Assembly (NCBI GenBank): GCA_910588125.1
Contig: CAJUPI010000004.1
Span: forward strand, 34,591 to 98,590
DNA from: an uncultured Lachnospiraceae bacterium
GTDB taxonomy: Bacteria > Bacillota > Clostridia > Lachnospirales > Lachnospiraceae
Length of the DNA: 64,000 nucleotides
Reading direction: 5' to 3'
Part shown: in pieces, positions 4,876 to 20,956 of the stretch
How positions within the stretch are numbered: the first letter of the stretch is position 1
How the letters are laid out: every line of letters begins with the position of its first letter
Made by a program: the position numbers and the translations under genes
Notes under the pieces: generated by a model
Databases searched by the model: none
The model's input: only the letters and a program-made list of their open reading frames with translations
Told to the model about the DNA's origin: nothing

Positions 4876-5715
4876 ATGGAACGAATGAAAAACCTGGCTT
4901 ATTATAATGGAAGGATTACTTCAATCGAAGATATGATGATACCGGCCAATGACAGGGGATTTTATTTTGGTGATGGTATTTATGAGGTGGCGATGGTATT
5001 TAATCACAAGATTTTTGCTTTGGAGGATCATTTAGACAGAATGGCAAGCAGCGCTGCTTTGGTAAGGATTGAACTGCCAGCGGCGAAGGAGGAGATTGGC
5101 CGCCTGCTCGGAGAGCTGGCACTTAAGGTGGAAAGCCCGTGCCAGTTTTTGTATTGGCAGATTACACGGGCATCATCGCCGAGAAATCACTTATTTCCGG
5201 AAGGGGTTGCCAGTAATCTCTATGTGTACAGCAAACCCTGGAAGGGTGTGGAGATGTCAGATGAATATCGCTTGATGACCGTGGAGGATACCCGTTTTCT
5301 TCATTGCAATATCAAGACGCTGAATCTGCTTCCGAATGTCATGGCGGCTCAGAAGGCGAAGGAGGCCGGATGCAGTGAAGCGGTCTTTGTCCGTGACGGG
5401 TATGTGACCGAGGGTTCTCATTCTAATATTTCCATGATAAAGGACGGGGTATTTGTTACACATCCTCTGGATCATTTCATTCTTCCGGGGACGGAGCGGA
5501 AGCATATGATCCGGTATTGCCGGGAGCTGGGCGTTTTGGTGGAGGAGCGGGCGTTTACTGTGGAAGAGCTGGCAGAAGCAGATGAGATTATCGTGTCCAG
5601 CACCAGCCACCCAAGCATGCGCGCCATGGAACTAGACGGGAGAGCCGTGGGAATGAAGAATCCGGAGCTGGTGAAAAAACTGAGAGATAAATATATGGAA
5701 GAGATTGCGGGATAA
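4876..5715 (+). CDS. dat: D-alanine (D-amino acid) aminotransferase, PLP fold type IV
   Basis: N-terminal DRGFYFGDGIYEV motif matches Dat (B. subtilis DRGYQFGDGIYEV); AGGAGAGG RBS before ATG 4876. Confidence 0.8.
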   Translation: MERMKNLAYYNGRITSIEDMMIPANDRGFYFGDGIYEVAMVFNHKIFALEDHLDRMASSAALVRIELPAAKEEIGRLLGELALKVESPCQFLYWQITRASSPRNHLFPEGVASNLYVYSKPWKGVEMSDEYRLMTVEDTRFLHCNIKTLNLLPNVMAAQKAKEAGCSEAVFVRDGYVTEGSHSNISMIKDGVFVTHPLDHFILPGTERKHMIRYCRELGVLVEERAFTVEELAEADEIIVSSTSHPSMRAMELDGRAVGMKNPELVKKLRDKYMEEIAG

Positions 5716-5769
5716 AGGTGCGGCTTTGATTTAAGAAGCATCCAGATAAAAGGAGTATGTTATAAAGAA

Positions 5770-7386
5770 ATGAAGGGAAATTGCAAAAGCAAAAGGATCC
5801 GCTGGGACAAAGTGCTTTTATCTATGGTTCTTTGGCATTTGGCATTTTATCTGGTTGGCTGTGTTGCCAAGGAAGAAGAATCCCGCTATCCAGAGGTGGA
5901 AAAATATCTGTTTGACAGATTTGAAGTCCTGGGTAAGTATAGCGGCAATTACTATATTGAGGAGATATCAGAAAACGGAGAAGTTTATTACCGGGTTACC
6001 GAGAAGGAGGGGGAGAAGCTGGAATTTCGTGTGTTCCCGGTGGGAGATGAGTACACAAAGGCCGGCTTTGATGATACTTGCCCGGTGGCCTTTGTGATGA
6101 AAAAGGCCGGGGAGACGGGGCTTGTGCTGGAGCCGGGAGATGGGGAAAAGGAGCTGGTAGCCACAATCGATGGTTATGGGGAGATAGAAGAGCTGGCAGA
6201 AAAGCTGGCTCGGATCGCCGGGGCTTATGAGAAGGCCGGGCTGCCGGCCCGGTTTACCTCAGGGACAAAGGGAGATGGCTGGAACTGTGCGGATATCCGG
6301 GTGGAGATACGTGGATTTTCACCAGAGGGATATGAGCCGGGGGTGATTCATATTCCGGACAACATTAACGGAATCCATGGCAAGGAGGAAATACAGAAGT
6401 ATTTGCAGGCCAATTATCTCACCTATATGTATCGGTATTATCTGGGAGAAATTCCCGGGGAAGTGCCGAAGGAAAGCCTTCGGATAGCCGAAGGAGAACC
6501 GGATGGCATTACTGTGGAATCCGGAGAGAGGGTAACGGAGTATCCCAATCTGGAATATGATGATCTTTATTTTGCGCAAGTGTACCACTTGGCCTGTGAG
6601 GAGGGCTGGGAGGTTACGGCGGAGGAAAACTCTTTTACCATCACGGCAGAGGGGCAGGCGTATCGCTTTGAACTGGTTTTTGAGGAAAGGGATGCCGCCG
6701 ACATATCAGAGAGCGAGTTGTATTTTGGGCGTCGGGAACCACGGGGGCATGCCTTGAATTGTGAGCCCGCCGTTTATTGGTATCCGGCAGAAGGGGAGGG
6801 CCGGATGCCTGCCAGTTCAGAGAAGGCCAGGGACAAGGCAAGCATTTCGGCAGATATCTTGGAACAGATTACCGGAGCCAGACTAGAATCCGGGTTGCGG
6901 TATTTAGATGAGGAGGAACGGATCCGGGAGATTCAGGATGAGGTGGATGGATATCTTCTTCGTTCGGATGTGAAGCAGATCGGAGAAAGTGCCGAGATTG
7001 CCGGCTGGCATATCACTTTGAAACAGACAGAAGCAAAGAAACGGATAGAAGAAGGCGATTGGTATTTGGAGGCGGATGAGGGCAAGATTTTTGTGCTTTT
7101 TAATCTCGAGGTAGAGAATCAGACAACGCAGAAACAGTATTTGTTTGAAAGTGTGGTTACTCCGGAGGAGCTGCAGGCGAGACTGATAAGTTCAGGCGGC
7201 CACCGGGATATTCCGACAGAGGTGCTTTATCTGGAATCCGATATGATAAATCGCAGGATGGAACCGGGCGAGGTGGCTCGTGGCAATTTGATATTCCATA
7301 TGGATGAAAACATTCTTCAGGAAGATGAAACGGTATTCCTGGTGCTCCATACAGAAGATGAGAGCCAGGTTTTCCGGATTCAGTAA
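5770..7386 (+). CDS. Lipoprotein of unknown function, paralog 1 of a tandem pair
   Basis: 538 aa; signal peptide with lipobox LVGC; about 45-50% identical to the downstream gene with colinear conserved blocks. Confidence 0.7.
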   Translation: MKGNCKSKRIRWDKVLLSMVLWHLAFYLVGCVAKEEESRYPEVEKYLFDRFEVLGKYSGNYYIEEISENGEVYYRVTEKEGEKLEFRVFPVGDEYTKAGFDDTCPVAFVMKKAGETGLVLEPGDGEKELVATIDGYGEIEELAEKLARIAGAYEKAGLPARFTSGTKGDGWNCADIRVEIRGFSPEGYEPGVIHIPDNINGIHGKEEIQKYLQANYLTYMYRYYLGEIPGEVPKESLRIAEGEPDGITVESGERVTEYPNLEYDDLYFAQVYHLACEEGWEVTAEENSFTITAEGQAYRFELVFEERDAADISESELYFGRREPRGHALNCEPAVYWYPAEGEGRMPASSEKARDKASISADILEQITGARLESGLRYLDEEERIREIQDEVDGYLLRSDVKQIGESAEIAGWHITLKQTEAKKRIEEGDWYLEADEGKIFVLFNLEVENQTTQKQYLFESVVTPEELQARLISSGGHRDIPTEVLYLESDMINRRMEPGEVARGNLIFHMDENILQEDETVFLVLHTEDESQVFRIQ

Positions 7387-7397
7387 CGGAGGAGATT

Positions 7398-8996
7398 ATG
7401 AAAAAGAACAGGAAAAGCGAGAGATATTTTTGGAAGAATGTGATTTTGGCAATTGCTTTTTGGGGCCTGGCAGCCTGCCTTGGCGGATGTTCTGCCATGG
7501 AGGGAAAATCTTCTTATCCGGAGGTGGAGCAGTATCTGAAAAACCGATATGGCGGCAAATTTCAGATCGAGCAGGTGGCCGGGGACGGGGCGGAAATCTC
7601 TTACCGGGTGGTACAAAAGGATGGAGAAAAGCTGGAGTTTGAAGTCTATCCTGTGGGGAAGGAGTACACCAATAAGGGTTTTGATGATACCTGCCCGGTG
7701 GCCTTTGTGATGAAAAAGGCCGGGGAGACGGGGCTTGTGCTGGAGCCGGGAGAGGGGGAGAAGGAATTAATAGCTACTGTGGATGGGTATGAAGAGCTTG
7801 GGGCACTGGCAGAGAAGCTGGCTCAGATCGCGGATGCCTATGAAAAGGCTGGTCTTCCGGCTAAGTTTACCACCGGAACGGTGGGAGACGGCTGGAACAG
7901 CGCGAATATCCGGGTGGAGATCCGGGGGTTTGCGCCCGAGGGCTACCAGCCAGGGATAATCCGTATTCCGGACAGCGTTACCGGATTTCACGATAAAGAG
8001 TCTATGCAGTGGTATCTGGAAACCAATTACCTGACCTTTTTGAAACGGTATGTTCTGGAAGAGATTCCGGCAGGGATACCAAAGGAGGCATTTCAGGAGA
8101 TAAGAGGGGATGCCAGTGGAATAACGGTTATCAATGGGGAGGAGACGAGAGAATATCCGGAGCTGGATTACCATCATCTCTATTTTGCAGAGGTTTACCG
8201 TCTGGCAAAAAGGGAGGGCTGGGAGCCGGTGGCGGATGAAAATGGCTTTACGATTGCCAGAGGAGAAGAGAATTACCGTTTTGAGCTGGTGTTTGAGGAG
8301 CGGGAAGATATAAAAAATCAGGAGAAATATAAGTATTCCGGGAGCTGGGAGCCTCTGGGCCATGCAGCCGGCCAGGAGCCGGTGGTTTACTGCTTTATGG
8401 CAGGCGAAGAAGAAAAAATGCCAGCCAGTTCCGATTATACCGCGGATAAGGGTGGGATTTCAGTGGATATCCTGGAGCAGATTACCGGAACCACGATAGA
8501 ATCTGGTTTAAAGCTTCAGGACGCGCAAGAGCGGATCCAGGAAATTCAGGAGGAAGCGGACGGGTATCTGCTTCGCTCAGATGCGAAGGCATTGGGTGAA
8601 AGCGTTGAAATTGCGGGCTGGCGTATTACCTTAAACCAGGTGGAAGAAAAGAAACGGCTGGAAACCAGTTCGATGTATTATGAGGCGGATGAGGGTAAAA
8701 TTTTTGTGCGTCTGAATATGGAGGTGGAAAACCTGGGGACGGAAAAGGCGCCTTTTCTCAAGACGATTGTTACTGGCGACGATCTGCTGATACATCTGGT
8801 AAGCTCGGGGGGCCATCGTTATATACCTGTGGATTTGATTGGAATGTCAGATCTGACAAGCGCCTCGGTGGAGCCGAGTGGCGTGGAAAGCGGCGGGCTG
8901 ATTTTTCATATTGCGGAGGATATTTTACAACAGGATGAATATATTTTCCTGGTGTTTAAGGCCGGGGAGGAAAGCAGGCTTTTTAGAATTAAGTAG
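7398..8996 (+). CDS. Lipoprotein of unknown function, paralog 2 of a tandem pair
   Basis: 532 aa; GGAGGAG RBS; signal peptide with lipobox LGGC; shares a 74-bp near-identical nucleotide patch with paralog 1. Confidence 0.7.
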   Translation: MKKNRKSERYFWKNVILAIAFWGLAACLGGCSAMEGKSSYPEVEQYLKNRYGGKFQIEQVAGDGAEISYRVVQKDGEKLEFEVYPVGKEYTNKGFDDTCPVAFVMKKAGETGLVLEPGEGEKELIATVDGYEELGALAEKLAQIADAYEKAGLPAKFTTGTVGDGWNSANIRVEIRGFAPEGYQPGIIRIPDSVTGFHDKESMQWYLETNYLTFLKRYVLEEIPAGIPKEAFQEIRGDASGITVINGEETREYPELDYHHLYFAEVYRLAKREGWEPVADENGFTIARGEENYRFELVFEEREDIKNQEKYKYSGSWEPLGHAAGQEPVVYCFMAGEEEKMPASSDYTADKGGISVDILEQITGTTIESGLKLQDAQERIQEIQEEADGYLLRSDAKALGESVEIAGWRITLNQVEEKKRLETSSMYYEADEGKIFVRLNMEVENLGTEKAPFLKTIVTGDDLLIHLVSSGGHRYIPVDLIGMSDLTSASVEPSGVESGGLIFHIAEDILQQDEYIFLVFKAGEESRLFRIK

Positions 8997-9005
8997 GAGG
9001 ATGCT

Positions 9006-10139
9006 ATGAAACAGATGCGAATCCGCGATTTCGGGATTGTGCCCGGACGGATGAAGACAGGAAAAAGAAATAAAATTACCGATGTTTGCGGGGTACTAAT
9101 CGGGCATGCTACCATTAAGAACCAGGAGAACCATACAGGAGTTACGGTGATTCTCCCGGGAAAGGATAATGCTTTTGCCAGAAAGTATGTGGCGGCTTCT
9201 TATGTTCATAATGGCTTTGGGAAAAGCTGCGGCCTGATTCAAATTGATGAGCTGGGGACTTTGGAGACGCCGATTGCCCTTACCAATACCTTGAATGTAG
9301 GGGTGGTTTGGGATGCTGTGGCAGAGTATGTCATCCGGCAGTGTGAGAAGGAGAAGGTTCCGGTCAAGAGCCTGAATCCGGTGGTGGGGGAGTGTAATGA
9401 CTGCCAGATCAACCATATCGAGAAGCGGGGAGTGAGGGCGGAGCATGTGTGGGATGCCATTGCATGTGCAGAAGCGGACTTTGCTGAAGGAGATGTGGGA
9501 GCCGGGGCGGGAACGATCTGCTATGGGCTTAAGGGCGGTATTGGCTCAGCCTCCCGGGTGGTGGAATTTTACGGGAAGGAGTATACCATCGGGGTGCTGG
9601 TGCAGTCGAATTTCGGTGCTACGGAGGATTTTGTACTGGATGGGGTTTTAGCAGGGGAGCGGATTCTTGAGCTGAAGAAAGAATTGGACAGAGGAAGAGA
9701 AGAAAGCCCTGGCAAGGATTTGGCGGGAAGTATGGCAGTTGCCCAGTCAGATCAGGGGTCGATTATGACGGTCCTGGCTACGGATCTTCCGGTATCCGAT
9801 CGGCAGCTGAGGCGGATCCTGCGCCGGACGGCGGTGGGGATTGCCCGCACAGGCGCTTATACCGGACATGGGAGCGGTGAGGTGATGATCGGATTTACGA
9901 CGGCTAACCGGGTCCCTGCAAAGCCAGGGGAGGAACCGGCATTACAGTCGTTAATCCATGAGTCTTTGATTAACCGTGCGTTTCAGGCGGCGGCAGAGGC
10001 GGCCCATGAAGCAATCTTAAATTCTATGGTGTGTGCCGGGCGGACAGTCGGGATTGATGGCCAGGTATACTGGGGGCTGGGAGAGCTGCTGCCTATGCTC
10101 ACCCGCCCCGCGCCAAAAGAGCCAGCCCCGTCTCGGTGA
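9006..10139 (+). CDS. P1/S58 (DmpA-like) aminopeptidase family protein
   Basis: 377 aa; AGGAGG RBS; DmpA/ArgJ-fold family features (N-terminal RIRDFGIVPG ... GVTVILPG, internal self-processing-type region). Confidence 0.7.
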   Translation: MKQMRIRDFGIVPGRMKTGKRNKITDVCGVLIGHATIKNQENHTGVTVILPGKDNAFARKYVAASYVHNGFGKSCGLIQIDELGTLETPIALTNTLNVGVVWDAVAEYVIRQCEKEKVPVKSLNPVVGECNDCQINHIEKRGVRAEHVWDAIACAEADFAEGDVGAGAGTICYGLKGGIGSASRVVEFYGKEYTIGVLVQSNFGATEDFVLDGVLAGERILELKKELDRGREESPGKDLAGSMAVAQSDQGSIMTVLATDLPVSDRQLRRILRRTAVGIARTGAYTGHGSGEVMIGFTTANRVPAKPGEEPALQSLIHESLINRAFQAAAEAAHEAILNSMVCAGRTVGIDGQVYWGLGELLPMLTRPAPKEPAPSR

Positions 10140-12099
10140 TTTCACATCCGCCCTTGGTGCGGTGGACCAGAATTAAATTTTCGTCAGACAGTTCTTTTAA
10201 TAGCCCGCGCAGCTTTCCGTCGCTGATTTCGGCGCCGGATTCTGCCAGGGCTTTTTGTATGGAGCTACGTCCGCTTTTGGGTGTGTTTTTGATGATGGTG
10301 AGAACCTGGCGTTTGAGGGCGCTTATGTTTTCCCCGGTGGCTGCCAGCCCGTCCCGGATGTAGGAGGGAAGCTGAGAGAGGATGAGGGGGTGGGCAGCGT
10401 AAAGAGAGGAAAAGTATTGGGCCAGGTTGATTAGCTCCTTTATATTGCCCGGATAGTCATAGTTTAGCAGAAACTGGTACAGGCTTTTGGAGAGGATAGC
10501 GTCCATCTGAAAGCGGGAATGGTGGAACAAGTTGCAAAAGCAATGCTCCAGTAAAAGGGGGATATCCTCCCGGCGTTCTTTTAAAGGGATGGTGTCCAGA
10601 ACGGCTGTGCTGAGCTGGAAAAACAAGTTCTCCTGAAAAGCATTTTTTTGTACCAGGGAGTATAAATTAGGGGCGGAGGTGGCAATCACCCGGATATCCC
10701 AGGAGCGTTGGGGGAGCAGAAATTCGCTGGCGGTGTTCTGTAAGAGCTGAACCAGAAAATCCTGCATTTCAGGAGAGAATTTTTCAATATGGTCGACCAG
10801 GAGTGTGCCGTGGTTGGCAGTCTCCAATACCTCCGGCAGGTCGCAGCCGGACAGAGTGAGCAATTGATTGAGGCTGACGAAGGGATAGCGGCGCCGGCTG
10901 GAACTTTGATGAATGGCTTTGGCCAGCATTTTTTTCTGGGTTCCGCTTTCACCCTGAATCAGAACCGGAAAATCATAGAGGGAGAGCCGCCTGGCGTAGG
11001 AAAGCACCTCCTGAAACCGCTCGGAGGCAGTGATCAGATGGGAAAAGCTGCTGCGCTGCCTTTCAATGGGAGAGGTCTCCGGCTTATGCTCCTCAGAAAG
11101 GGCCAGATCGGAAAGCAGGGGGGGTGCATTGGTATCAGATTCCTGATTGAGAGCCGGCTTACTGGTCAGCAGGGAAACGTGGGTGTGGTTGGGGAAGGAC
11201 AGCTCCATGACGCTTAATATCATGGGGACATCCATGTGGTTGGCAATCCGGTAATCGGCGGTCTGATTGAACAGGATTCTGGAATAAGCTTCCGGAAGGC
11301 AGTGGGAAAAGGGAGTTCCGATCCCCTGCTTTCTGGAGAGCCCCCAGTCTTTGGAAAAATTTTTGTTGACTGCCATGATGGTTCCGTTTTCGTCCAGCAG
11401 GCAGATGCTAAAGGGCAGGTTGGAGACGGTGGCCAGGAGAAGCTGCTGGGAAAAGACAAAGCTGCTGTAGTAGCTCCCGGCGGTTTTTACTACCTTTAAG
11501 ATATGGGAAATGTAATTTCTGGTGATCTGATTTCCCAGCTTGGCGGGCAGATGGAACAGGACACACAGCTCGTTGATAGTGGAAATGTCGATGATCCGGT
11601 TGCCGATATTGATGACGTTGCGGATGTGTCCGGGAACCAGCCGGGGCTCGCCGACCGTGATCGCATAGCGGACGGAAAGATCCGTCTCCTGGGTTTCTGA
11701 GGAATAGGGGATAAATTGGTACTGGCTGATGCCAAAGTCCTCAAATTGCCGGATCGTACTTAAGGTGGAATCGAAAAAATCATTGACCACATAGACCTTT
11801 TCGCCGGGAGGAATGCGGATGATCTGATCCAAAAAGGCGTGGTTGAAGGTCCTGGTACAGACGATCTGGCTGATGGAGCCCGGGATGGGGACGGGAAATT
11901 CCGACTGAACCTTGGTACTGGAAAAAAGGATACACTGGTAAGACAGAAGCTGGGCGGCATCTGTGATCTCAGAGGGGGCGCTGGTATCAAAAAGGATGTG
12001 CTCTCCCAAGACAGAGTGGAGGTAATCCTGGAATTCGATACGAATGTAGGGGTTGATGCAGACGATCAGTACGTGTGGTTTTTTCTGGGAAAAGGACAT
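10099..12099 (-). CDS. TyrR/PrpR-like transcriptional regulator: N-terminal sensory region, PAS, AAA+ sigma-54-interaction-like domain lacking the GAFTGA motif, and C-terminal winged HTH
   Basis: 667 aa from ATG 12099 (GGAGG RBS). Walker-A-like GESGTQKKMLAKAIH, then IRVIATS ... ERREDIPLL arginine-finger region, with no ESELFGHEKGAFTGA segment. PAS-like FSICLLDENGTIMAVNKNF. The 3' end overlaps the convergent peptidase gene by 41 bp. Confidence 0.7.
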   Translation of the reverse strand: MSFSQKKPHVLIVCINPYIRIEFQDYLHSVLGEHILFDTSAPSEITDAAQLLSYQCILFSSTKVQSEFPVPIPGSISQIVCTRTFNHAFLDQIIRIPPGEKVYVVNDFFDSTLSTIRQFEDFGISQYQFIPYSSETQETDLSVRYAITVGEPRLVPGHIRNVINIGNRIIDISTINELCVLFHLPAKLGNQITRNYISHILKVVKTAGSYYSSFVFSQQLLLATVSNLPFSICLLDENGTIMAVNKNFSKDWGLSRKQGIGTPFSHCLPEAYSRILFNQTADYRIANHMDVPMILSVMELSFPNHTHVSLLTSKPALNQESDTNAPPLLSDLALSEEHKPETSPIERQRSSFSHLITASERFQEVLSYARRLSLYDFPVLIQGESGTQKKMLAKAIHQSSSRRRYPFVSLNQLLTLSGCDLPEVLETANHGTLLVDHIEKFSPEMQDFLVQLLQNTASEFLLPQRSWDIRVIATSAPNLYSLVQKNAFQENLFFQLSTAVLDTIPLKERREDIPLLLEHCFCNLFHHSRFQMDAILSKSLYQFLLNYDYPGNIKELINLAQYFSSLYAAHPLILSQLPSYIRDGLAATGENISALKRQVLTIIKNTPKSGRSSIQKALAESGAEISDGKLRGLLKELSDENLILVHRTKGGCEITETGLALLARGG

Positions 12100-12282
12100 C
12101 GGCGGCCTCCTGAGTGATTGATGGATAAATTTTTGTGATGAGGAAATGCTATACATTGATATATGTATGGATAAAACGCTGATTTTAGGATAATTATAGA
12201 ATAAAAACAGAAATAAATCAACCTAATTACTTTATAAAATTAAAAGGCGTTGAAAAAAGGCGAAAATTTCAACACTTTACTT

Positions 12283-12311
12283 TGACAAAGAAAGAAAGCC
12301 CCATTAGAATA
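12283..12311 (+). promoter_or_regulatory. Sigma-70-type promoter for the peptide ABC transporter operon (TTGACA-17 bp-TAGAAT)
   Basis: TTGACA at 12283-12288, 17-nt spacer, TAGAAT at 12306-12311, about 95 nt upstream of the substrate-binding-protein start. Confidence 0.45.
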
Positions 12312-12407
12312 GTAAGATAGCAAAACGAAGGCGTTTATATAGAACTTTGCCTTTGCTTTTTTATTGCTTTACCGTATTTTATATTGGGAAGAACAAGGAG
12401 GAGTTTT

Positions 12408-14096: not shown

Positions 14097-14182
14097 CGAA
14101 AAGCCGGAGGATGCTATATCAGGCTGTCAGGTAAGTACCGGCAGGTGCAGGTACGAACGTTACCGTGTTAATTAGATGTTTC

Positions 14183-14226
14183 AGGCGCTGCAAGGCTGTG
14201 GACTCAGTTTGCGGCGCCTTTTGTTA
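14183..14226 (+). terminator. Stem-loop with U-tract between the binding-protein gene and permease genes (putative attenuating terminator)
   Basis: AGGCGCTGC ... GCGGCGCCT 9-bp stem (one G-U) followed by TTTTGTT. Confidence 0.35.
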
Positions 14227-14329
14227 TCGGATTCCTCCCATATTGTTCTGAGCAGAATCGTTATAACCGTTCGGCTTTTTTTGAGCCGTTGTTGTCCGTT
14301 ACCCGAAACCAGTAAGGAGATGAGAGAAA

Positions 14330-15250
14330 ATGTTGCGATATACTTTAAAACGAATCATAGGAGTGCTTCCCACTCTGATAATAGTAGTAACCTTTGTATT
14401 CTTTTTTGTCCGGATGATTCCCGGAGATCCGGCCCGCCTGGTGGCGGGAGAGCAGGCTACTTTGGACGCGGTGGAGGCGGTGCGGGTCCAGTTAGGCCTG
14501 GATCAGCCCATCCATATCCAGTATCTGAAATATGTAGGCGGCTTGCTGCGGGGGGATCTGGGTATGTCTCTGCGGACGAAACGTCCGGTGCTGACAGAAG
14601 TGGCGGCTCGATATGGCAATACTATGGCCCTGACGCTTGCCAGCCTGGTGTGGAGTACGATTGTGGGCGTGATTCTGGGAGTCTGGTCGGGAAAGAACCG
14701 GGGGAAATGGCAGGATTTCACGGGCATGACCCTGGCGGTATCGGGAATTTCCCTGCCGAACTTCTGGATCGGTTTCCTCTTGATTATGCTGTTTTCCGTG
14801 AAACTGCGATGGTTTCCCACCACGGGTACGGGAAGCTGGAAGAACCTGGTTTTGCCGGCCATTGCCCTGGGGACTAGCATTGCAGCGATTATCGCACGGT
14901 TTACCCGTTCTTCCATTGTGGAGGTGCTGAAAGAAGATTATATCCGTACGGCCAGAGCCAAGGGGCTTAGGGAAAAGACTGTAACCTGGGGGCATGCCTT
15001 CCGCAATTCCATGATTTCCGTGGTGACAGTAGTGGGGCTTCAGTTTGGCTTTTTACTGGGCGGTTCGGTAGTCACGGAGGCAGTGTTTGCTTATCCGGGC
15101 CTGGGGCAGCTTCTGGTGGAGTCGGTGAATTACCGGGATTATCCGGCGATTCAGTCTCTGATTTTGATTTTCTCACTGCAGTTTATTATCATCAATCTGA
15201 TTGTGGATATCCTCTATGCGGTCCTCAATCCGGAAATCAAGTTGTCATAG
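14330..15250 (+). CDS. ABC peptide transporter permease (DppB/OppB-type)
   Basis: 306 aa; AAGGAG RBS; BPD_transp_1 signature region and multiple TM helices. Confidence 0.85.
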   Translation: MLRYTLKRIIGVLPTLIIVVTFVFFFVRMIPGDPARLVAGEQATLDAVEAVRVQLGLDQPIHIQYLKYVGGLLRGDLGMSLRTKRPVLTEVAARYGNTMALTLASLVWSTIVGVILGVWSGKNRGKWQDFTGMTLAVSGISLPNFWIGFLLIMLFSVKLRWFPTTGTGSWKNLVLPAIALGTSIAAIIARFTRSSIVEVLKEDYIRTARAKGLREKTVTWGHAFRNSMISVVTVVGLQFGFLLGGSVVTEAVFAYPGLGQLLVESVNYRDYPAIQSLILIFSLQFIIINLIVDILYAVLNPEIKLS

Positions 15251-15263
15251 GAGGAATAAATAC

Positions 15264-16157
15264 ATGATCGGAAAGAAAAAGTCTGTGAAAGCAGAATTGA
15301 ATGAAAAGACAGATATTAAAACTCCGATTTCGGAGATGGTGCGGAAATTTAAAAAACAGAAGAATTCGGTGGTTGCTTTATTCTTTATCCTCTTTTTGGT
15401 ATTTCTGGCTTTGTTTGGGGAAGCTCTGGCGCCGTTTAAGATCAATGAATACGATTATAACTCGATTCTTCAGGGACCCAGTATGGCTCACTGGTTTGGG
15501 ACGGATGAGTTTGGCAGGGATTTGTTTTCCCGGATTATCAGTGGCACGAAAATCTCTTTGGCCGTAGGTCTTTCAGCCGTTTCCGTGGGAGCTGTCTGCG
15601 GGACGATCCTGGGACTTTTGGGAGGCTATTACCGGGGGATTGTAGATGCAGTTATCATGCGGATCTGCGATGTTTTATTTGCCTTTCCGGGAATTATTCT
15701 GGCTATTGCTATTGTGGCTATTTTGGGAAGCGGCATCGGGAATGTGGTAATTGCAGTGTCAGTGTTCTCCACGCCTACCTTTGCCCGTCTGGTGAGGAGC
15801 CGGACCCTGGCTCTTAAAAATTCCGTGTTTGTCCAGGCGGCGAAGAATTTAGGAGCCTCGGATGCCAGGATATTATTCCGCCATATTTTGCCGGGGGCGG
15901 TGCCGGAGATTATCGTCCAGTTTACCATGTCGGTAGGTTCTTCGATTTTGACGGCTTCCTCTTTGAGCTTTCTGGGAATGGGAGCCCAGCCGCCTACGCC
16001 GGAGTGGGGATTGTTGCTGGCCAACGGGCGGAATTACATGATGACCAGCATGCATTGTACGGTATTTCCGGGACTTGCGATTTTCCTGACTGTGCTGAGT
16101 TTTAATATTCTCGGGGACGGACTGCGGGATGCTCTTGATCCGAAGCTGACGGATTAA
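15264..16157 (+). CDS. ABC peptide transporter permease (DppC/OppC-type)
   Basis: GGAGG RBS before ATG 15264; OppC N-terminal region plus permease TM core. Confidence 0.85.
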   Translation: MIGKKKSVKAELNEKTDIKTPISEMVRKFKKQKNSVVALFFILFLVFLALFGEALAPFKINEYDYNSILQGPSMAHWFGTDEFGRDLFSRIISGTKISLAVGLSAVSVGAVCGTILGLLGGYYRGIVDAVIMRICDVLFAFPGIILAIAIVAILGSGIGNVVIAVSVFSTPTFARLVRSRTLALKNSVFVQAAKNLGASDARILFRHILPGAVPEIIVQFTMSVGSSILTASSLSFLGMGAQPPTPEWGLLLANGRNYMMTSMHCTVFPGLAIFLTVLSFNILGDGLRDALDPKLTD

Positions 16158-16184
16158 AGGCAAAGAAAGGAGGACAAAGGACAG

Positions 16185-17174
16185 ATGGAAGATAACAGGA
16201 AAAATATATTGGAAGTGAAGAATCTTCACACTTATTTTTATACGGACAGCGGAGTGGTAAAATCGGTGGACGGGGTGGATTTTGCGCTGAAGGAGGGATC
16301 TACCTTAGGTATTGTAGGGGAATCGGGAAGCGGAAAGAGTGTGACTTCTCTTTCGGTTATGGGACTTTTGACCGGAACCACCGGAAAGATTGTTGAGGGA
16401 GAGATCTTGCTCGAGGGTAAGGATATTGCCCATATCAGTGAGGAGGAGAAGCGGAAACTGCGGGGCAGCCAGATTTCGATGATTTTCCAGGAGCCGATGA
16501 CCAGCTTAAATCCGGTGATGAAGATTGGAAAGCAGCTGACGGAATGTATCTTACAGCATCAAGATGTCTCGAAGGAGGAGGCATACAAGAAAGCAGAAGA
16601 TATGCTGCGCCGGACCGGAGTTCCACGGGTGGAGCATATGATGAAGGAGTATCCCTTCCAGCTTTCCGGCGGCCAGCGTCAGCGGGTGATGATTGCCATG
16701 GCGCTGGTGTGCGGGCCGAAGATCCTGATCGCGGACGAGCCGACCACGGCGCTGGATGTGACCATTCAGGCGCAGATTCTGGATTTGATGAACGGGCTGA
16801 AAAAGGCGATTGGTACCTCTATTTTGTTTATCACTCATGATTTGGGAGTGGTGGCAGAGGTTTGCGACGAGGTAGTGGTTATGTATTGCGGCCGGGTGGT
16901 GGAAAAGGGAGATGTAAGGGAATTGTTTGCTCACCCGTCCCATCCTTATACCATTGGCCTTTTAAATTCCATTCCCAAGCTGGGAGAGGCAGTGGAGGAG
17001 CTGGAGGCCATTCCGGGGAATGTGCCCAATCCCAAATATATGCCTAAGGGCTGTAAATTTGCACCGCGGTGCAGCCGGGCCTTTGAGAGATGCCAGGAGG
17101 AGGAGCCGGGCTTTTATGAGATTGGCGAGGGACATGTAAGCCGGTGCTGGCTTTGTGAGAAAGGGGGCGTTTGA
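16185..17174 (+). CDS. ABC peptide transporter ATP-binding protein (DppD/OppD-type)
   Basis: Walker A GESGSGKS, signature LSGGQRQR, Walker B ILIADEPTTALD, C-terminal oligopeptide-ABC Cys-rich extension. Confidence 0.9.
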   Translation: MEDNRKNILEVKNLHTYFYTDSGVVKSVDGVDFALKEGSTLGIVGESGSGKSVTSLSVMGLLTGTTGKIVEGEILLEGKDIAHISEEEKRKLRGSQISMIFQEPMTSLNPVMKIGKQLTECILQHQDVSKEEAYKKAEDMLRRTGVPRVEHMMKEYPFQLSGGQRQRVMIAMALVCGPKILIADEPTTALDVTIQAQILDLMNGLKKAIGTSILFITHDLGVVAEVCDEVVVMYCGRVVEKGDVRELFAHPSHPYTIGLLNSIPKLGEAVEELEAIPGNVPNPKYMPKGCKFAPRCSRAFERCQEEEPGFYEIGEGHVSRCWLCEKGGV

Positions 17175-17175
17175 T

Positions 17176-18180
17176 ATGGCGAATACAGCAAATATTCTGC
17201 TGCATGTGGAGGATATGAAAATTTATTATCCGGTGGCGGGTAAGCGGCTGGGTACCACAGATTATGTGAAGGCAGTGGACGGCGTCTCCTTTGAAGTGAG
17301 GCGGGGAGAGGTGTTTGGCATTGTGGGTGAGTCAGGCTGCGGAAAGTCTACTCTGGGCCGGGGCATCTGCAAGCTGGAAAAGCCTACCGGGGGAAAAATA
17401 GTACTGGACGGGGAGGATATTTCCGGATATAATGACAGCCAGATGAGGCCGGTGCGCAAGAAGGTCCAGATGGTGTTTCAGGACCCGTACGCATCTCTCA
17501 ACCCCAGAATGTCGGTGTTTGATATTATCGCGGAGCCGTTGATGATTCATAAGCTGGTGAAGGATAAGGCCGAGATGGAGGAGAAGGTACTGGCGCTTCT
17601 CAGAAAGGTGGGGCTGGATGATTACCATGCCAACCGTTATCCTCATGAATTTTCCGGCGGCCAGCGCCAGCGGATCGGCATAGCCAGAGCGCTGGCGGTG
17701 CAGCCGTCTTTGATTATCGCGGACGAGCCGGTATCCGCCTTGGATGTGTCGATACAGGCCCAGGTGTTGAATTTGATGAATCAGTTGAAAAAGGATTTTA
17801 ACCTGACATATATTTTTGTGGCTCATGACTTGAGTGTGGTAGAACACATCAGTGATCGGGTGGGAGTCATGTATCTGGGGAATTTTGTGGAGGTGGGAAA
17901 TAAGGAGAGCCTGTATACCAATCCGCTCCATCCTTATACCCAGGCGCTGCTTTCCGCAGTACCTGTGCCCGACCCTACGGCTAAGAAGGACCGGGTGATT
18001 TTGGAGGGCAATATCCCGTCGCCGCTGAATCCGCCTAAGGGATGTAAGTTCCATACCAGATGCCCCAGGGCTATGGAGTGCTGTAAGACGGAGGCGCCGG
18101 GGCGTTATCAGGTCAGCGAGGATCATTATGTATATTGCCATCTTTATGATGAGGTGGGCGGAAAGCAGGGGAGATCATGA
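17176..18180 (+). CDS. ABC peptide transporter ATP-binding protein (DppF/OppF-type)
   Basis: Walker [10 protein letters not shown], signature FSGGQRQR, Walker [13 protein letters not shown]. Confidence 0.9.
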
Positions 18181-18977
18181 AGCTTTTTATCAGTGCAGAT
18201 ATCGAGGGCTGCGCCGGGCTGGCGATCCCGGCGGAGGCGCATAAGCAGGAGGCAGTCTACCGGGCTTTTGCTCAGGAGATGACAAAAGAGGTATTGACAG
18301 TTTGTGAAGCCGCCCGGGAGATGGGGGCTACGGAGATTGTAGTCAAGGACGGCCATGGGGACGCTTCTAATATCGATCCGCTTCAGATGCCGGATTATGT
18401 CAGGCTGATTCGGGGGAAAAGCGGACATCCTTACAATATGATGTGGGGACTTGACACGGGCTTTGACGGGGTGTTGTATGTGGGGTATCACGCGCCGGCG
18501 GGGAATCCGGAGTTTTCCATCAGCCATACCTCCACCGGCAACAGCTTGTATATCCGCCTCAATGGGGAATATATGAGCGAGTTTATGCTGAATACGTTGA
18601 CAGCAGCCAGCCTGGGGGTGCCGGTGTTGTTTTTGTCCGGGGATGAGGCCATCTGTGGACTGGCCAAAGGCCAGGTGCCAAAGATTGAGACGGCAGTGAC
18701 CAAAAAAGGCACCGGAGGGGCAACGATCTGCGAGCCTCAGGGGATTGTGCTGGAACGGATTCGGAGCGGGGTAAAAAAGGCGTTGGGCCGGGACTTTTCT
18801 TCCTGCCTGGTAGAGCTTCCAGGGCAGTTTACCTATGAGGTGACGTTTAAGGATTGGAAAAAGGCATATCAGATGTCGTTTTATCCAGGGATGGAGAAGG
18901 TGGACACGTTTACTAACCGGCTGGTGACCGACAGTTGGATGGATGTAGTGACGGCGCATTGTTTTGTAGTGTATTAG
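18177..18977 (+). CDS. dppA: M55-family D-aminopeptidase (B. subtilis DppA-like)
   Basis: 266 aa; N-terminal [14 protein letters not shown] is characteristic of peptidase M55; start overlaps the preceding ABC gene's stop (ATGA). Confidence 0.75.
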   Translation: MKLFISADIEGCAGLAIPAEAHKQEAVYRAFAQEMTKEVLTVCEAAREMGATEIVVKDGHGDASNIDPLQMPDYVRLIRGKSGHPYNMMWGLDTGFDGVLYVGYHAPAGNPEFSISHTSTGNSLYIRLNGEYMSEFMLNTLTAASLGVPVLFLSGDEAICGLAKGQVPKIETAVTKKGTGGATICEPQGIVLERIRSGVKKALGRDFSSCLVELPGQFTYEVTFKDWKKAYQMSFYPGMEKVDTFTNRLVTDSWMDVVTAHCFVVY

Positions 18978-19047
18978 GGGAAAAGGTTCCGCGGATGGCA
19001 CCTTGAAAAATATATTGATAAAACAGAGTGAAGGAGACAGCGAAGTC

Positions 19048-20142
19048 ATGGATATGCAGATGTTTGGCCGGATTTCCGATGCGTTTGGGCCGAGTGGATT
19101 TGAGGAGGATGTGATTCGCACGATTGCCGGGTATTGCCGGGAGTTTGAGGTGGAAAATGATGCGATGAACAATCTTTATGTGAGGATGCCAGGGGCGGAC
19201 AGGAAAAAACCGGTGATTCAGCTCGATGCTCATACGGATGAGTGTGGATTTATGGTGCAGGCCATTCATGAAAACGGAGTTTTGGGGATTGTGATGCTGG
19301 GGGGCTTTGTGCTCACAAATGTGCCGGCTCACACAGTGATGATCCGGACCAGGAGCGGGAAAATGGTGAGAGGGATCATCACTTCAAAGCCGGTCCATTT
19401 TATGAATGATAAGGAGAGGGCTTCTCAGGAGCTGGATATTGAGAAGATTTATGTTGATATCGGAGCAGTCAGCAGGAGAGAGGTGGAGGAAGACTTTGGA
19501 GTTTCCATTGGGGATCCGATGATGCCGGAGGTAAGCTTTTCTTATGATGAGGAGCACGGAGTCTGTTTTGGCAAGGCGTTTGACAACCGGGCGGGATGTG
19601 CCTGTATTGTAGATACCATGAAGACACTGTATGCGGAGCGGGAACATCTGGCCGTTCAGGTGGTCGGGGCTTTTGCGGCTCAGGAGGAGGTGGGCATGCG
19701 GGGCGCCACGGTGACGGCCCAGGTGGTGAAGCCGGATTTGGCCATTGTGTTTGAAGGATCACCCTCGGATGATTTCTATTTCAGCGCGGCGCTGGCGCAG
19801 GGACGGATGAAGAGCGGGGTGCAGATCCGGCGGTTGGACAAGAGCTACGTCTCTAACCCGGCATTTATGGAATATGCGATGGAGCTGGCAAAAACGTGTG
19901 GCATTCCCTATCAGGAGACGGTGCGGAGGGGCGGCAGCACCAATGCGGGGAAGATTAGCCTGACCGGAAAGGCGGTTCCGGTGCTGGTGCTGGGAGTGCC
20001 CAGCCGTTATGTGCACACGCATTATAATTTCTGTGCGAAACAGGATCTGGAGGCAGCGGCCGGCCTGGCAGTGCAGGTGATTCGTAAGCTGGACGAGGAG
20101 CGGTTGCGGCATATTTGCCGGCAGGATATACTGGAGGGGTAA
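19048..20142 (+). CDS. M42-family metallo-aminopeptidase (glutamyl aminopeptidase/FrvX-like)
   Basis: AAGGAG RBS before ATG 19048; M42 family architecture (PDZ-like insertion; HTDECGFMV ... GAFAAQEEVGMRGA). Confidence 0.75.
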   Translation: MDMQMFGRISDAFGPSGFEEDVIRTIAGYCREFEVENDAMNNLYVRMPGADRKKPVIQLDAHTDECGFMVQAIHENGVLGIVMLGGFVLTNVPAHTVMIRTRSGKMVRGIITSKPVHFMNDKERASQELDIEKIYVDIGAVSRREVEEDFGVSIGDPMMPEVSFSYDEEHGVCFGKAFDNRAGCACIVDTMKTLYAEREHLAVQVVGAFAAQEEVGMRGATVTAQVVKPDLAIVFEGSPSDDFYFSAALAQGRMKSGVQIRRLDKSYVSNPAFMEYAMELAKTCGIPYQETVRRGGSTNAGKISLTGKAVPVLVLGVPSRYVHTHYNFCAKQDLEAAAGLAVQVIRKLDEERLRHICRQDILEG

Positions 20143-20147
20143 AAAAG

Positions 20148-20885
20148 ATGACAAATCGGAGAAAACCTGTGATAGGCATCCTGGGCCTTACCAGGAGTAC
20201 AGATCCGGGACTGTATATCAGTGGAGAACATGTATTTACAGGAAGCACCAATGTACGGGCGATTCAGATGAACGGCGGGGTGCCGGTGCTAATTCCGGCG
20301 GCCATGGCTGCAGAGGATGTGGAAGCGGCGGTATCCTTTTGCGACGGGATTCTGATTCCTGGCGGAGACGATGTGACGCCCTGGTACTACGACGAGGAGC
20401 CGCTGCCAGTGATTGGGACTTTCCGTCCGGAGATCGATGATGCCTGGCTGAAGGTGGGGAGATATGCTCTGGAGAATAAGATTCCCATGCTGGGAATCTG
20501 CAAAGGTCACCAGACGCTGAATGTATTGATGGGCGGAAGCCTGTATCAGGATTTATCTCTCCAGGGAGGGGAGCTGATTCAGCATTTGCAGAGGTTTAAC
20601 CGGACTTATCTGACTCACCATGTGGAAGTGGTGGAAGGAACCCGGCTGGCGGGGCTTTTTGGCGCCGGAAAACTAAAGACCAATTCTATGCACCACCAGG
20701 CAGTGAAAAAGCTGGGGAAGGGATTGAAGATCTCGGCCCGGGCCTGTGACGGCACGGTAGAAGGAATCGAGGACGAGGAGGGCCTGATCATGGGGGTACA
20801 GTGGCATCCGGAGGATCTGGTGGACTCGGCTCCGGTGATGAACCGGCTGTTTGCGGATTTGGTGGAGCGGGCTTTGCGGCGGTAG
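20148..20885 (+). CDS. Class I glutamine-amidotransferase-like / peptidase C26 gamma-glutamyl hydrolase family protein (PuuD-like)
   Basis: GGAGGGG RBS; catalytic Cys in GICKGHQ and His in MHHQAV typical of C26/GATase1. Confidence 0.7.
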   Translation: MTNRRKPVIGILGLTRSTDPGLYISGEHVFTGSTNVRAIQMNGGVPVLIPAAMAAEDVEAAVSFCDGILIPGGDDVTPWYYDEEPLPVIGTFRPEIDDAWLKVGRYALENKIPMLGICKGHQTLNVLMGGSLYQDLSLQGGELIQHLQRFNRTYLTHHVEVVEGTRLAGLFGAGKLKTNSMHHQAVKKLGKGLKISARACDGTVEGIEDEEGLIMGVQWHPEDLVDSAPVMNRLFADLVERALRR

Positions 20886-20924
20886 GGTAACTTAAGGAAT
20901 TTATAATAAAAAGCAGAAACGGAA

Positions 20925-20956
20925 AAGGCACGTGGAATGAAAGCGTGCCTTTTTTA
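20925..20956 (+). terminator. Rho-independent terminator ending the peptide-utilization operon
   Basis: AAGGCACG-loop-CGTGCCTT hairpin followed by TTTTTTAT. Confidence 0.6.

Follow-up and report, generated by a model that had tools for sequence, protein, structure and literature searches.

What kind of peptide does an uncultured Lachnospiraceae bacterium of the gut collect with the genes at positions 4876-20956 of the window, the 64,000-nucleotide stretch of contig CAJUPI010000004.1 analyzed here? The original prediction was that the locus, lying on one strand and flanked by a divergent, dedicated regulator, takes up and degrades D-amino-acid-containing peptides of the muropeptide type. All the genes listed in it, from dat to the C26 gene, were found on the + strand at the positions that it gave. 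The regulator gene, however, lies on the - strand inside the locus and not beside it; the locus therefore falls into two operons, both on the + strand: one is dat–lipoprotein–lipoprotein–S58, the other SBP–DppBCDF–M55–M42–C26 (SBP, substrate-binding protein). The regulator gene is divergent from the SBP gene, as expected, and convergent with the S58 gene, the 3' ends of the two overlapping by 41 nt.

The terminator proposed at the end of the locus is real. It is an intrinsic terminator of the transporter-peptidase operon (20921-20956, + strand) with a 13-bp stem followed by a U-run (dG -18.3 kcal/mol, z -3.7). The terminator scan also showed two terminator-like hairpins (14195-14215 and 14272-14288, + strand) between the SBP and permease genes, where partial attenuation is possible. 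The promoter scan placed a sigma-70-like candidate of the transporter operon at 12282-12310 (+ strand; TTGACA-17-TAGAAT, 11/12 matches), and alignment with five orthologous intergenic regions revealed a conserved block upstream of it (12216-12250, + strand). The sigma-70-like candidate 5' of dat (4794-4822, + strand; TTTACA-17-TATACT) is a consensus match only. Neither promoter region of the locus contained a sigma-54 promoter.

The regulator (10099-12156, - strand; the true start is probably M20 at 12099) is composed of two alpha/beta modules, for which no Pfam family match was obtained, a PAS domain, a degenerate AAA+ domain of the sigma-54-interaction-like type and a winged helix. The PAS and AAA+ domains are shared with TyrR and PrdR. 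As in TyrR, the GAFTGA loop is missing, and it was absent from all 16 orthologues; the regulator is so presumably sigma-54-independent. In contrast to TyrR and PrdR, no ACT domain was detected, the DNA-binding domain is a winged helix and not a Fis-type HTH, and the Walker A (GESGTQKK) and Walker B (D-H) motifs are degenerate. Since the GAFTGA loop is absent and the Walker motifs are degenerate, the regulator can be called TyrR-like only loosely.

Does this gene set represent a functional unit? We analyzed 35 Firmicute-type loci with orthologous SBP and permeases, located by an M55 query. The M55 gene is present in all 35 by design, because the loci were found with it. M42 recurs in 32 of them, C26 in 29 and S58 in 20, and 16 have the regulator; these counts are lower bounds because the flanks are truncated. 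The C26 and S58 genes switch position and strand between lineages, and every gene of the cluster is under purifying selection (dN/dS 0.02-0.19). Abundant gut contigs, among them those of the Enterocloster bolteae type, also carry the full cluster, and the same genes co-occur in dozens of other genomes. The recurrence of M42, C26 and S58 indicates a conserved unit of function and not a chance neighbourhood; in the literature we found no experimental study of it. A class IV aminotransferase gene lies near S58 in Microvirga and Mesorhizobium, adjoining M55, alongside a different importer; in Microvirga (L064), C26 is also in this neighbourhood. A PGA_cap (CapA-like) gene adjoins the C26 gene in one of the orthologous loci.

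The two predicted lipoproteins of the first operon are present as tandem paralogues with 59% identity (5770-7386, 538 aa, lipobox LVGC; 7398-8996, 532 aa, lipobox LGGC; both + strand). In lipoprotein 1, some 390 N-terminal residues form a rare region, which is followed by a C-terminal DUF4352 beta-sandwich, the DUF4352 match being weak. The pair is a lineage-specific insertion from a very small family and stands outside the conserved module.

The gene dat (4876-5715, + strand; Pfam Aminotran_4, 157 bits), the ATG of which at 4876 is preceded by the RBS GGAGAGG, encodes a transaminase of fold type IV. Its best PDB match is the D-amino-acid transaminase (DAAT) of Bacillus sp. YM-1 (194 bits), with which it shares the fold, the substrate-carboxylate trap Y31/R98/H100, and K145 and E177. 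The same five residues are kept in the cluster-linked Firmicute Dat orthologues. By this signature, Dat is classified as the canonical D-amino-acid type. It differs from the YM-1 enzyme in scoring below the NCBIfam equivalog cut-offs and in its separate, S58-linked grouping. A dat-anchored metagenome scan covered 20 loci with Dat of at least 76% identity and 60 loci with Dat of 49–55% identity. In the former, S58 lies immediately downstream of dat in 18 of 20, the other two being truncated loci; in the latter, cluster genes were near dat in none of the 60. The S58-linked Dat belongs to a distinct subclade (at least 76% identity), which is defined by this linkage. The Dat-S58 pair was also found as a two-gene cassette beside a Rep3 initiator and an IS605 TnpB. 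In the literature searched, we found no mention of such tight genetic coupling.

On the other hand, dat is lacking in many copies of the cluster, for example in the Enterocloster bolteae-type contigs. Only 6 of the 35 clusters have it in the flanks that were available, and in contigs L177 and L178 it is not adjacent to S58. D-amino-acid disposal therefore need not be part of the module. The absence of dat from many copies agrees with an explanation by generic peptide nutrition, in which an ordinary di-/oligopeptide importer and cytoplasmic aminopeptidases of broad specificity feed amino-acid fermentation, the D-names of M55 and S58 are inherited annotation, and Dat supplies D-Glu and D-Ala to the cell wall. 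The parts of the transporter all belong to the standard Dpp/Opp family, M42 enzymes of the TET type are general aminopeptidases, and enzymes specific to peptidoglycan peptides were not seen nearby. In addition, a Fervidobacterium M55 enzyme helped keratin breakdown, raising amino-acid release from feather keratin (PMC7017815). This explanation, however, does not account for the coupling of S58 to one Dat subclade and not to ordinary Dat homologues, for the movement of the Dat-S58 cassette near plasmid and IS genes, or for the retention of a C26 enzyme of the gamma-glutamyl-amide-hydrolase type in 29 clusters despite rearrangements. We consider it unlikely.

The M55 aminopeptidase of the DppA family (18177-18977, + strand; Pfam, 270 bits) was aligned to B. 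subtilis DppA (1hi9; 74 bits). It keeps D8, E10, H60, H105 and E135, the full set of metal ligands of that D-aminopeptidase, and all five are invariant across 15 homologues. Its D-stereospecificity would be extrapolated from one characterised enzyme with about 30% identity. The next gene encodes an M42 aminopeptidase of the TET/PepA type (19003-20142, + strand; Pfam, 239 bits), for which the NCBIfam matches, to models of aminopeptidases and of glutamyl aminopeptidases, all stayed below cut-off. The S58 protein (9006-10139, + strand; Pfam, 361 bits) is an Ntn-type aminopeptidase/amidase of the DmpA/BapA family, with matches to PH0078 of Pyrococcus horikoshii (2drh; 276 bits), BapA (174 bits) and DmpA of Ochrobactrum anthropi (160 bits). 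The full-length S58 fold and the position of the self-processing nucleophile Ser are common to all of them, QG|SIMTVLATD being aligned to KN|SLLIVIATD of BapA. The family includes DmpA, a D-Ala amidase/esterase, and L- and beta-amino acids at the N-terminus are likewise cleaved off by S58 enzymes. Since PH0078, the closest relative, is to our knowledge uncharacterised, it gives no basis for assigning the S58 protein of the locus a specificity for D-Ala, for L- or for beta-residues.

The match to BapA would suit the uptake of beta-peptides or beta-alanyl dipeptides of the carnosine type, with a BapA-like S58 enzyme cleaving them. Activity of S58 enzymes on beta-alanyl compounds has been reported (PMC9570944). 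The nearest relative is, however, PH0078 and not BapA, and the coupled transaminase carries the alpha-carboxylate trap of D-alpha-amino-acid transaminases. Beta-alanine transamination is, as far as we know, carried out by class III enzymes. Beta-peptides are accordingly the least probable substrates considered here, and we give them hardly any weight.

The C26 enzyme, a class I amidotransferase-like protein of the gamma-glutamyl-hydrolase type, is encoded at 20148-20885 (+ strand; Pfam, 195 bits), the ATG at 20148 probably being the true start. Its PDB matches are Lin1909 (153 bits), SpuA (101 bits) and PuuD (78 bits), with which it has in common the family, the catalytic Cys (GICKGHQ) and the His and Glu (QWHPE). 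We know of no established substrate of Lin1909; the characterised relatives PuuD and SpuA are gamma-glutamyl-amide hydrolases. In contrast to these relatives, the C26 enzyme of the locus is set in peptide import and not in polyamine catabolism. The catalytic residues of M55, S58 and C26 are thus intact. The combination of this type of C26 with a D-Glu/D-Ala transaminase would also fit the use of poly- or oligo-gamma-glutamate fragments, C26 cutting imported gamma-linked D/L-Glu oligomers and Dat handling D-Glu, as would the PGA_cap neighbour of C26. That neighbour, however, occurs in a single locus, M55, M42 and S58 would be left without a role, and the SBP belongs to the peptide type and shows no sign of binding polyanionic ligands. 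This possibility seems very unlikely.

The Dpp-type five-gene ABC importer was found as predicted, entirely on the + strand. It comprises a substrate-binding lipoprotein (12408-14096; SBP_bac_5, Pfam, 292 bits; lipobox LTAC), DppB/DppC-type permeases (14330-15250 and 15264-16157; BPD_transp_1, BPD_transp_1_N, OppC_N) and DppD/DppF-type ATPases (16185-17174 and 17155-18180; ABC_tran and oligo_HPY). The SBP is 64-95% identical across orthologous clusters, and between close relatives the permeases share 89-98% identity, with dN/dS of about 0.02-0.04. The closest characterised relatives of the SBP, YliB/GsiB of E. coli (1uqw; 350 bits) and HbpA (156 bits), are binders of glutathione and not of D-peptides or murein peptides; with MppA, which binds murein tripeptide, the SBP scores only 55 bits. 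The glutathione importer GsiABCD (YliABCD) of E. coli is also of the Dpp/Opp type. It differs from that of the locus, where the SBP is a Gram-positive lipoprotein below the equivalog cut-off, the two ATPases are separate, and M55, M42, C26, S58 and Dat accompany the importer.

The resemblance to GsiB and HbpA brings in glutathione or dietary or host gamma-L-glutamyl peptides as substrates, C26 cutting the gamma-Glu bond and M55, M42 and S58 splitting Cys-Gly. The plant C26 enzyme GGP1 cleaves the gamma-Glu bond of glutathione conjugates, PuuD and SpuA hydrolyse gamma-glutamyl amides, and few members of the cluster are as constant as C26. The score of the SBP against the NCBIfam GsiB model (387 bits) is, however, far under the cut-off of 594, and SBPs nearest to GsiB can bind ligands of quite another kind, such as L-amino-acid amides (bioRxiv 10.1101/2024.02.22.581678). 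Moreover, a transaminase for D-amino acids coupled to S58 would have no role, and gamma-glutamyl transpeptidase and sulfur-metabolism genes were not found nearby. It is therefore rather improbable that glutathione-type peptides are the substrate.

Are the substrates then muropeptides? Importers in the family SBP_bac_5 can carry peptidoglycan-derived peptides, as do E. coli MppA-OppBCDF and Agrobacterium YejBEF-YepA (PMC3173086; PMC11509177). Compared with the E. coli MppA system, which works with MpaA, LdcA and YcjG, the locus has an SBP with only the above weak match to MppA and is without enzymes of these three types. Neither the locus nor the approximately 35 orthologous loci contained an S66 LD-carboxypeptidase, an NlpC/P60 or M14 gamma-D-Glu-DAP amidase, or an L-Ala-D/L-Glu epimerase. 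With the SBP nearest to GsiB and not to MppA, no diagnostic stem-peptide enzymes, and dat missing from many copies, the designation as muropeptide-type is at most a hypothesis. The broader proposal of D-amino-acid peptides fared better, as the DAAT signature of Dat and the position of its subclade almost always directly before S58 speak for it.

The proposed analogy to B. subtilis dppABCDE-ykfABCD, which combines the D-aminopeptidase DppA, the Dpp importer and murein-peptide enzymes (LD-carboxypeptidase, epimerase, NlpC/P60), is fair at the level of a Dpp importer with M55 and additional peptide-degrading enzymes. In both systems the M55 gene lies within a five-component importer operon that continues into such enzymes, and the proposed role is alike, the salvage of peptides containing D-residues. 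In the locus, however, M55 follows the ATPase genes, whereas it comes first in B. subtilis; YkfA (S66), YkfB (epimerase) and YkfC (NlpC/P60) are replaced by S58, M42, C26 and Dat; the SBP is GsiB-like; and a bEBP-like regulator stands in place of the B. subtilis regulation.

The conservation of the module, the coupling of Dat and S58, and the residues kept in Dat, M55, S58 and C26 support a role in processing peptides with D-amino acids and gamma-glutamyl peptides. The explanation that we favour, with a little less than even confidence, is a module, conserved in gut Clostridia, for the salvage of short peptides with N-terminal D-residues or gamma-glutamyl units, bonds that ordinary L-peptidases would handle poorly. 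We infer the substrates, their stereochemistry and the order of steps as follows. The peptide would be caught by the surface-anchored SBP lipoprotein and imported through the DppBCDF-type translocator. In the cytoplasm, the exopeptidases M55, M42 and S58 would trim N-terminal residues, and C26 would take off an N-terminal gamma-glutamyl unit. Dat could then turn the freed D-Ala or D-Glu into pyruvate or 2-oxoglutarate, or alternatively interconvert the two so that the cell wall can use them again. The sigma-70-type promoter of the transporter operon is probably the target of the PAS-bearing, sigma-54-independent and probably ATPase-dead bEBP-like regulator, which would respond to a presumed effector. 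Peptidoglycan stem-peptide fragments would, hypothetically, be the most obvious natural substrates to fit this enzyme set. The locus, then, probably serves this bacterium in the salvage of unusual D-amino-acid or gamma-glutamyl peptides, possibly including cell-wall fragments.

All of the genes named in the original prediction were found by ORF listing and Pfam/NCBIfam scans, and all of them lie on the plus strand. The D-amino-acid transaminase gene dat (4876-5715) is followed by two paralogous lipoprotein genes (5770-7386 and 7398-8996) and by the gene for S58, a DmpA/BapA-family enzyme (9006-10139). The gene for the substrate-binding lipoprotein of the importer (SBP; SBP_bac_5), the true start of which is the ATG at 12408, occupies 12408-14096. 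It is followed by genes for two permeases and two ATPases with the oligo_HPY domain, and then by those for the DppA-family aminopeptidase M55 (18177-18977), the TET/PepA-type aminopeptidase M42 (19003-20142) and the gamma-glutamyl-hydrolase-type enzyme C26 (20148-20885), the probable start of which is the ATG at 20148 behind a GGAGGGG ribosome-binding site. The terminator that had been placed at the end of the locus is a strong one (20921-20956, plus strand; 13-bp stem, dG -18.3 kcal/mol, z -3.7, U-run). The listed genes, however, do not make up a single one-strand locus. Midway along the locus sits the minus-strand regulator gene (10099-12099/12156), which diverges from the SBP gene and converges with the S58 gene, so that the plus-strand genes fall into two operons. 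In the first operon, dat-lipoprotein-lipoprotein-S58, the gaps between genes are 54, 11 and 9 nt. The second operon runs from the SBP gene to the C26 gene, with terminator-like hairpins 3' of the SBP gene. Sigma-70-like promoters were found 5' of both operons.

The conservation of this gene set was analyzed in 80 loci retrieved by an M55-alignment-anchored scan with one genome per species, in which homologues of every window protein were located by tblastn and all-against-all clustering. Identical or nearly identical loci were found in MAGs from the mouse gut and from other gut sources, and among cultured organisms 'Bacterium 1XD21-70' is the closest relative. Orthologous SBP and permeases were present in 35 Firmicute-type loci, from Lachnospiraceae, Lacrimispora, Ventrimonas, Fusicatenibacter, Blautia, Oscillospiraceae, Selenomonadales, Veillonella and Tissierella, together with one Spirochaetales MAG. 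M55 is present in all 35 by design, because it was the query. M42 was found in at least 32 of them, C26 in at least 29, S58 in at least 20, the regulator in at least 16 and dat in at least 6, all of which are lower bounds since many flanks are cut. In the clade of the window C26 is located downstream of M42; Lacrimispora-type loci have it upstream and in the opposite orientation. Depending on the lineage, S58 is either upstream or downstream, or else stands at the far end of the cluster. Genes that are kept together because of their function would be expected to show just such shuffling of order and strand with maintained co-occurrence. The complete cluster was also found on Enterocloster bolteae-type contigs, and on another contig, the regulator of which is among the most frequently sampled members of its family. 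All cluster genes are under purifying selection (dN/dS 0.02-0.19 against six relatives). An apparent hypervariability of the SBP was rejected, its true identity being 85-95% in relatives whose permeases are 97% identical. All-against-all ORF clustering of the 80 loci gave no further neighbor family common to them; the leftover clusters consisted of antisense shadow ORFs or of genes local to a lineage (AzlC/AzlD, for example). The co-localized genes thus form a genuine and widespread module.

The transaminase was analyzed further. Dat aligns over its full length with the D-amino-acid transaminase of Bacillus YM-1 (194 bits), and scores below the NCBIfam equivalog cut-offs (TIGR01121, 238 vs 277 bits; NF005209, 242 vs 320 bits). 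The PLP-binding Lys145 and Glu177 are kept (NIKTLNLL and TEGSHSN vs DIKSLNLL and TEGSSSN in 3lqs/1daa). The alpha-carboxylate trap Tyr31/Arg98/His100 is kept as well (GDGIYEV and SPRNHLF vs GDGVYEV and SPRAHQF), also in the cluster-linked Firmicute orthologues of Dat. In a dat-anchored scan of metagenome contigs, S58 was encoded directly downstream of Dat in 18 of the 20 loci with Dat of at least 76% identity, the remaining two being truncated, and some of these Dat-S58 loci run on into C26, regulator, SBP and permeases. In contrast, all 60 loci in which the identity of Dat was 49-55% lacked every cluster gene. This split shows genetic coupling of S58 to a distinct subclade of Dat. On recurrent human-gut contigs (L102:9911-11942; also L097-L107), the dat-S58 pair is isolated from any peptide transporter. 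Since it lies there beside genes for a Rep3 initiator of plasmid replication and a TnpB of the IS605 type, the pair behaves as a mobile two-gene cassette. The coupling is the strongest new evidence that S58 may hand a D-amino acid to Dat. Such a handover would fit the D-Ala amidase/esterase activity of DmpA. It is worth noting that dat is missing from many copies of the cluster.

A weaker echo of this arrangement was found in Alphaproteobacteria, where an aminotransferase/S58/C26 trio recurs with a different importer class. In a Microvirga locus (L064:10001-17448), a divergent LysR gene comes after M55, and beyond it lies an operon that encodes S58 and C26 together with a class IV aminotransferase and an ABC importer of the SBP_bac_3 polar-amino-acid type. 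Comparable loci are present in Mesorhizobium and Microvirga (L059, L060 and L067); C26 was undetected in the similar Mesorhizobium set. The class IV aminotransferases of these loci keep the trap Arg and lack the equivalent of His100.

The active-site residues of the hydrolases were compared with those of solved relatives. S58 has a full-length family domain (PF03576, 361 bits, profile positions 1-306 of 307), and keeps the nucleophile Ser at the predicted self-cleavage site (QG|SIMTVLATD vs KG|SIIMIIATD in PH0078 and KN|SLLIVIATD in BapA). Its nearest solved relative is PH0078 (276 bits), which to our knowledge is uncharacterized. Beta-peptides were considered as the substrate of a locus with such an enzyme, and are extremely improbable. 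M55 (PF04951, 270 bits) keeps the five metal ligands of B. subtilis DppA (D8, E10, H60, H104 and E133 in 1hi9), which are invariant in 15 homologues, and scores 119 bits against the NCBIfam DppA equivalog cut-off of 430 bits (NF058634). As far as we know, B. subtilis DppA is the only M55 enzyme characterized for D-stereospecificity. An M55 enzyme of Fervidobacterium raised the release of amino acids from keratin (PMC7017815). Generic peptide nutrition, in which the module would serve no special class of peptides, is improbable. C26 (PF07722, 195 bits) keeps the catalytic Cys and the His/Glu pair (GICKGHQ and QWHPE, aligned with Lin1909), and scores below the PuuD equivalog cut-off (NF008471, 91 vs 266 bits). 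Its relatives are Lin1909, for which we know of no assigned function, and the gamma-glutamyl-amide hydrolases SpuA and PuuD. Fragments of gamma-polyglutamate, as the gamma-glutamyl compounds served by the module, are very improbable.

The SBP is most similar, among solved structures, to E. coli GsiB/YliB (350 bits), and it falls below the GsiB equivalog cut-off (NF011942, 387 vs 594 bits). Its nearest characterized relatives, GsiB/YliB and HbpA-type proteins, bind glutathione, which speaks for import of glutathione or gamma-glutamyl peptides. Similarity at this level, however, is not enough to assign the ligand: another SBP with GsiB as its nearest characterized relative binds L-amino-acid amides (bioRxiv 10.1101/2024.02.22.581678). 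We regard the glutathione reading as quite unlikely. The score of the SBP against the murein-tripeptide binder MppA (3o9p) is 55 bits, far below those against GsiB, HbpA, DppA and NikA.

Known stem-peptide pathways are defined by an S66 LD-carboxypeptidase, an NlpC/P60 or M14 amidase and an L-Ala-D/L-Glu epimerase. An S66 LD-carboxypeptidase, a gamma-D-Glu-diamino-acid (DAP) amidase/endopeptidase of the NlpC/P60 or M14 type and an L-Ala-D/L-Glu epimerase are all absent from the Pfam matches of the larger ORFs of the window, and none of them is conserved in any orthologous locus. The locus had been described as analogous to, but compositionally different from, the B. subtilis dpp-ykf operon, and this description holds for the combination of a Dpp importer with M55 and further peptide-degrading enzymes. 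The M55 gene likewise lies inside a Dpp-type ABC operon, an arrangement kept in the Firmicute-type loci (retrieved with M55 as the query), whereas the three enzymes of dpp-ykf-type murein-peptide operons are lacking. The proposed uptake and breakdown of muropeptide-type peptides stands in part. Its D-amino-acid thread gains from the trap residues of Dat and from the Dat-S58 coupling; the muropeptide itself is disfavored by the GsiB-like SBP with its low MppA score, by the lack of stem-peptide enzymes, by the frequent absence of dat and by the single precedent for D-specificity among M55 enzymes.

The best-supported reading, which we favor tentatively, is that the module imports short peptides with D-residues and/or gamma-glutamyl bonds and hydrolyzes them fully in the cytoplasm. 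In many lineages, the released D-Ala or D-Glu would be passed to the dedicated transaminase. We hypothesize that peptidoglycan stem peptides are the most natural fit as the substrate. It is unlikely, in our estimate, that gut Lachnospiraceae and their relatives, including Enterocloster bolteae, use the module for dedicated scavenging of exogenous stem peptides by a Gram-positive route unlike the known ones, with two new enzyme activities. In that case C26 would act as a gamma-D-glutamyl-(meso-DAP/Lys) amidase on iE-DAP-type fragments, and S58 would release D-Ala directly to the co-inherited transaminase. No experimental study of this gene combination was found in the literature.

The two lipoproteins, each with a lipobox and a C-terminal DUF4352 beta-sandwich, are outside the conserved module. 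In most relatives dat is directly followed by S58 with no lipoprotein gene between them. One sister group (L173/L174) has a single lipoprotein gene between dat and S58, another (L171/L172) has dat and the lipoprotein gene without S58, and the tandem duplicate is found in the lineage of the window. The family is tiny (19 matches among 5.8 billion proteins). In an exhaustive profile search, full-length members comprised only two 50%-identity clusters and a handful of distant members, all other matches being confined to the DUF4352 domain. An AlphaFold model (pLDDT 79) matched known structures only via the beta-sandwich (YjhA, MPT63, YcdA, and B. subtilis YxkC in a model together with the DD-carboxypeptidase DacA, 9a4z). 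Distant homologues adjoin cell-wall genes (L004:4802-11503; L008:8544-14695): FtsEX, a PcsB-like M23 peptidase and an S41 peptidase in one lineage, and an 829-aa NlpC/P60 protein and an LCP protein in another. These neighbors hint at a possible cell-wall connection of the family.

The regulator had been described as TyrR-like and divergently encoded. It is divergent from the SBP gene, and it lacks GAFTGA as TyrR does; the full TyrR architecture (ACT-PAS-AAA-HTH_8) is not borne out. The N-terminal part of the protein is made up of alpha/beta modules without a Pfam match; the other parts are a PAS domain, an AAA+ domain of the sigma-54-interaction type and a C-terminal winged helix (HTH_12-like). 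PAS and AAA are shared with TyrR, whereas neither an ACT nor an HTH_8 match was found in the regulator, and the specific resemblance is only the absence of GAFTGA. In the window protein and 16 orthologues, the GAFTGA segment is deleted, Walker A reads GE[SNT]GTQKK, and Walker B has D followed by H/N/S/G instead of DE, so that the catalytic Glu is absent. These features suggest that the regulator is a sigma-54-independent member of the bEBP superfamily and probably ATPase-dead. Sigma-54 promoters were sought and rejected: neither promoter region matched the -24/-12 consensus (TGGCAC-N5-TTGCW), and window-wide matches were fewer than in shuffled sequence. Two candidate operators, GAAATTTTYGCC, which stands before dat as well as before the SBP gene, and the inverted repeat GTTGAAA-N11-TTTCAAC at 12249-12273, were rejected as unconserved in orthologous intergenic regions. 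A 35-nt block directly upstream of the -35 element is conserved.

The convergent S58 and regulator genes have overlapping or abutting 3' ends in the window (10099-10139) and also in distant relatives (12055-12058 in L177, an Enterocloster bolteae-type contig; 10764-10773 in the sister-group locus L173). Since no space is left for terminators, transcripts reading through the end of S58 would be antisense to the mRNA of the regulator. The presence of a riboswitch or leader RNA was rejected. Rfam gave no match across 4000-22000, and the short hairpin and U-run in the 5' leader at 12328-12362 (GAAGGC...GCCUUUGCUUUUUU) folds no better than shuffled sequence (z -0.4). A hairpin with a U-run is also present at this position in more distant orthologues.

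The surroundings of the locus were also inspected. Between the GH36 melibiase gene and dat lies a low-GC patch (about 41%; 4064-4703) that contains two small genes, one on the minus strand for a 112-aa membrane protein or lipoprotein and one on the plus strand for a 66-aa HTH_26 regulator. Some sister genomes (L001, L175) have this patch too, and others (L173) have different small ORFs in its place. The patch probably represents a small insertion with no relation to the peptide locus. The gene directly after the terminator (21105-22781) encodes a methyl-accepting chemotaxis protein that has an sCache_3 sensor domain. Since the synteny of this gene is limited to the closest relatives (L011, L012), it is probably independent of the peptide locus. 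A 172-aa ORF (22890-23408, minus strand) encodes only the C-terminal DNA-binding domain of Spo0A, without the receiver domain. Further downstream, a Tad/Flp-type pilus locus (33161-45611; AAA_31 CpaE-like, T2SSE ATPase, T2SSF, DUF5702) precedes four more genes. Their products are a protein containing a CDI-toxin EC869-like nuclease domain (41081-42199), a protein with an FHA domain, a PP2C phosphatase and, last, a 1409-aa He_PIG surface protein (46261-50490). In other orthologous clusters, C26 is followed by a PGA_cap gene (CapA-like, poly-gamma-glutamate-associated) and an M28/M20-acetyltransferase fusion (L178:21-2201), or by a small RelA_SpoT synthetase and an FmdA_AmdA amidase (L177).

The locus departs from, yet belongs among, the known operons of a Dpp importer plus peptidases. 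Little is known of peptidoglycan-peptide recycling in monoderm bacteria, according to a 2024 review (PMC11509177). The main value of the present finding lies in the Dat-S58 coupling and in its being directly testable in cultured gut species. The S58 family has so far been studied mostly as a biocatalyst, and the Dat-S58 pair offers a simple handle for assigning it a physiological substrate. If only ordinary L-peptides are handled, the finding would be routine. Peptidoglycan fragments in the gut are host signals, and if the stem-peptide route is true, the module would be a consumer of luminal NOD1/NOD2 ligands in the gut. The module in abundant gut Clostridia is a testable candidate for the consumption of D-amino-acid or gamma-glutamyl peptides, which could be cell-wall debris, glutathione-type peptides or D-Ala dipeptides, and is tied genetically to a D-amino-acid transaminase.
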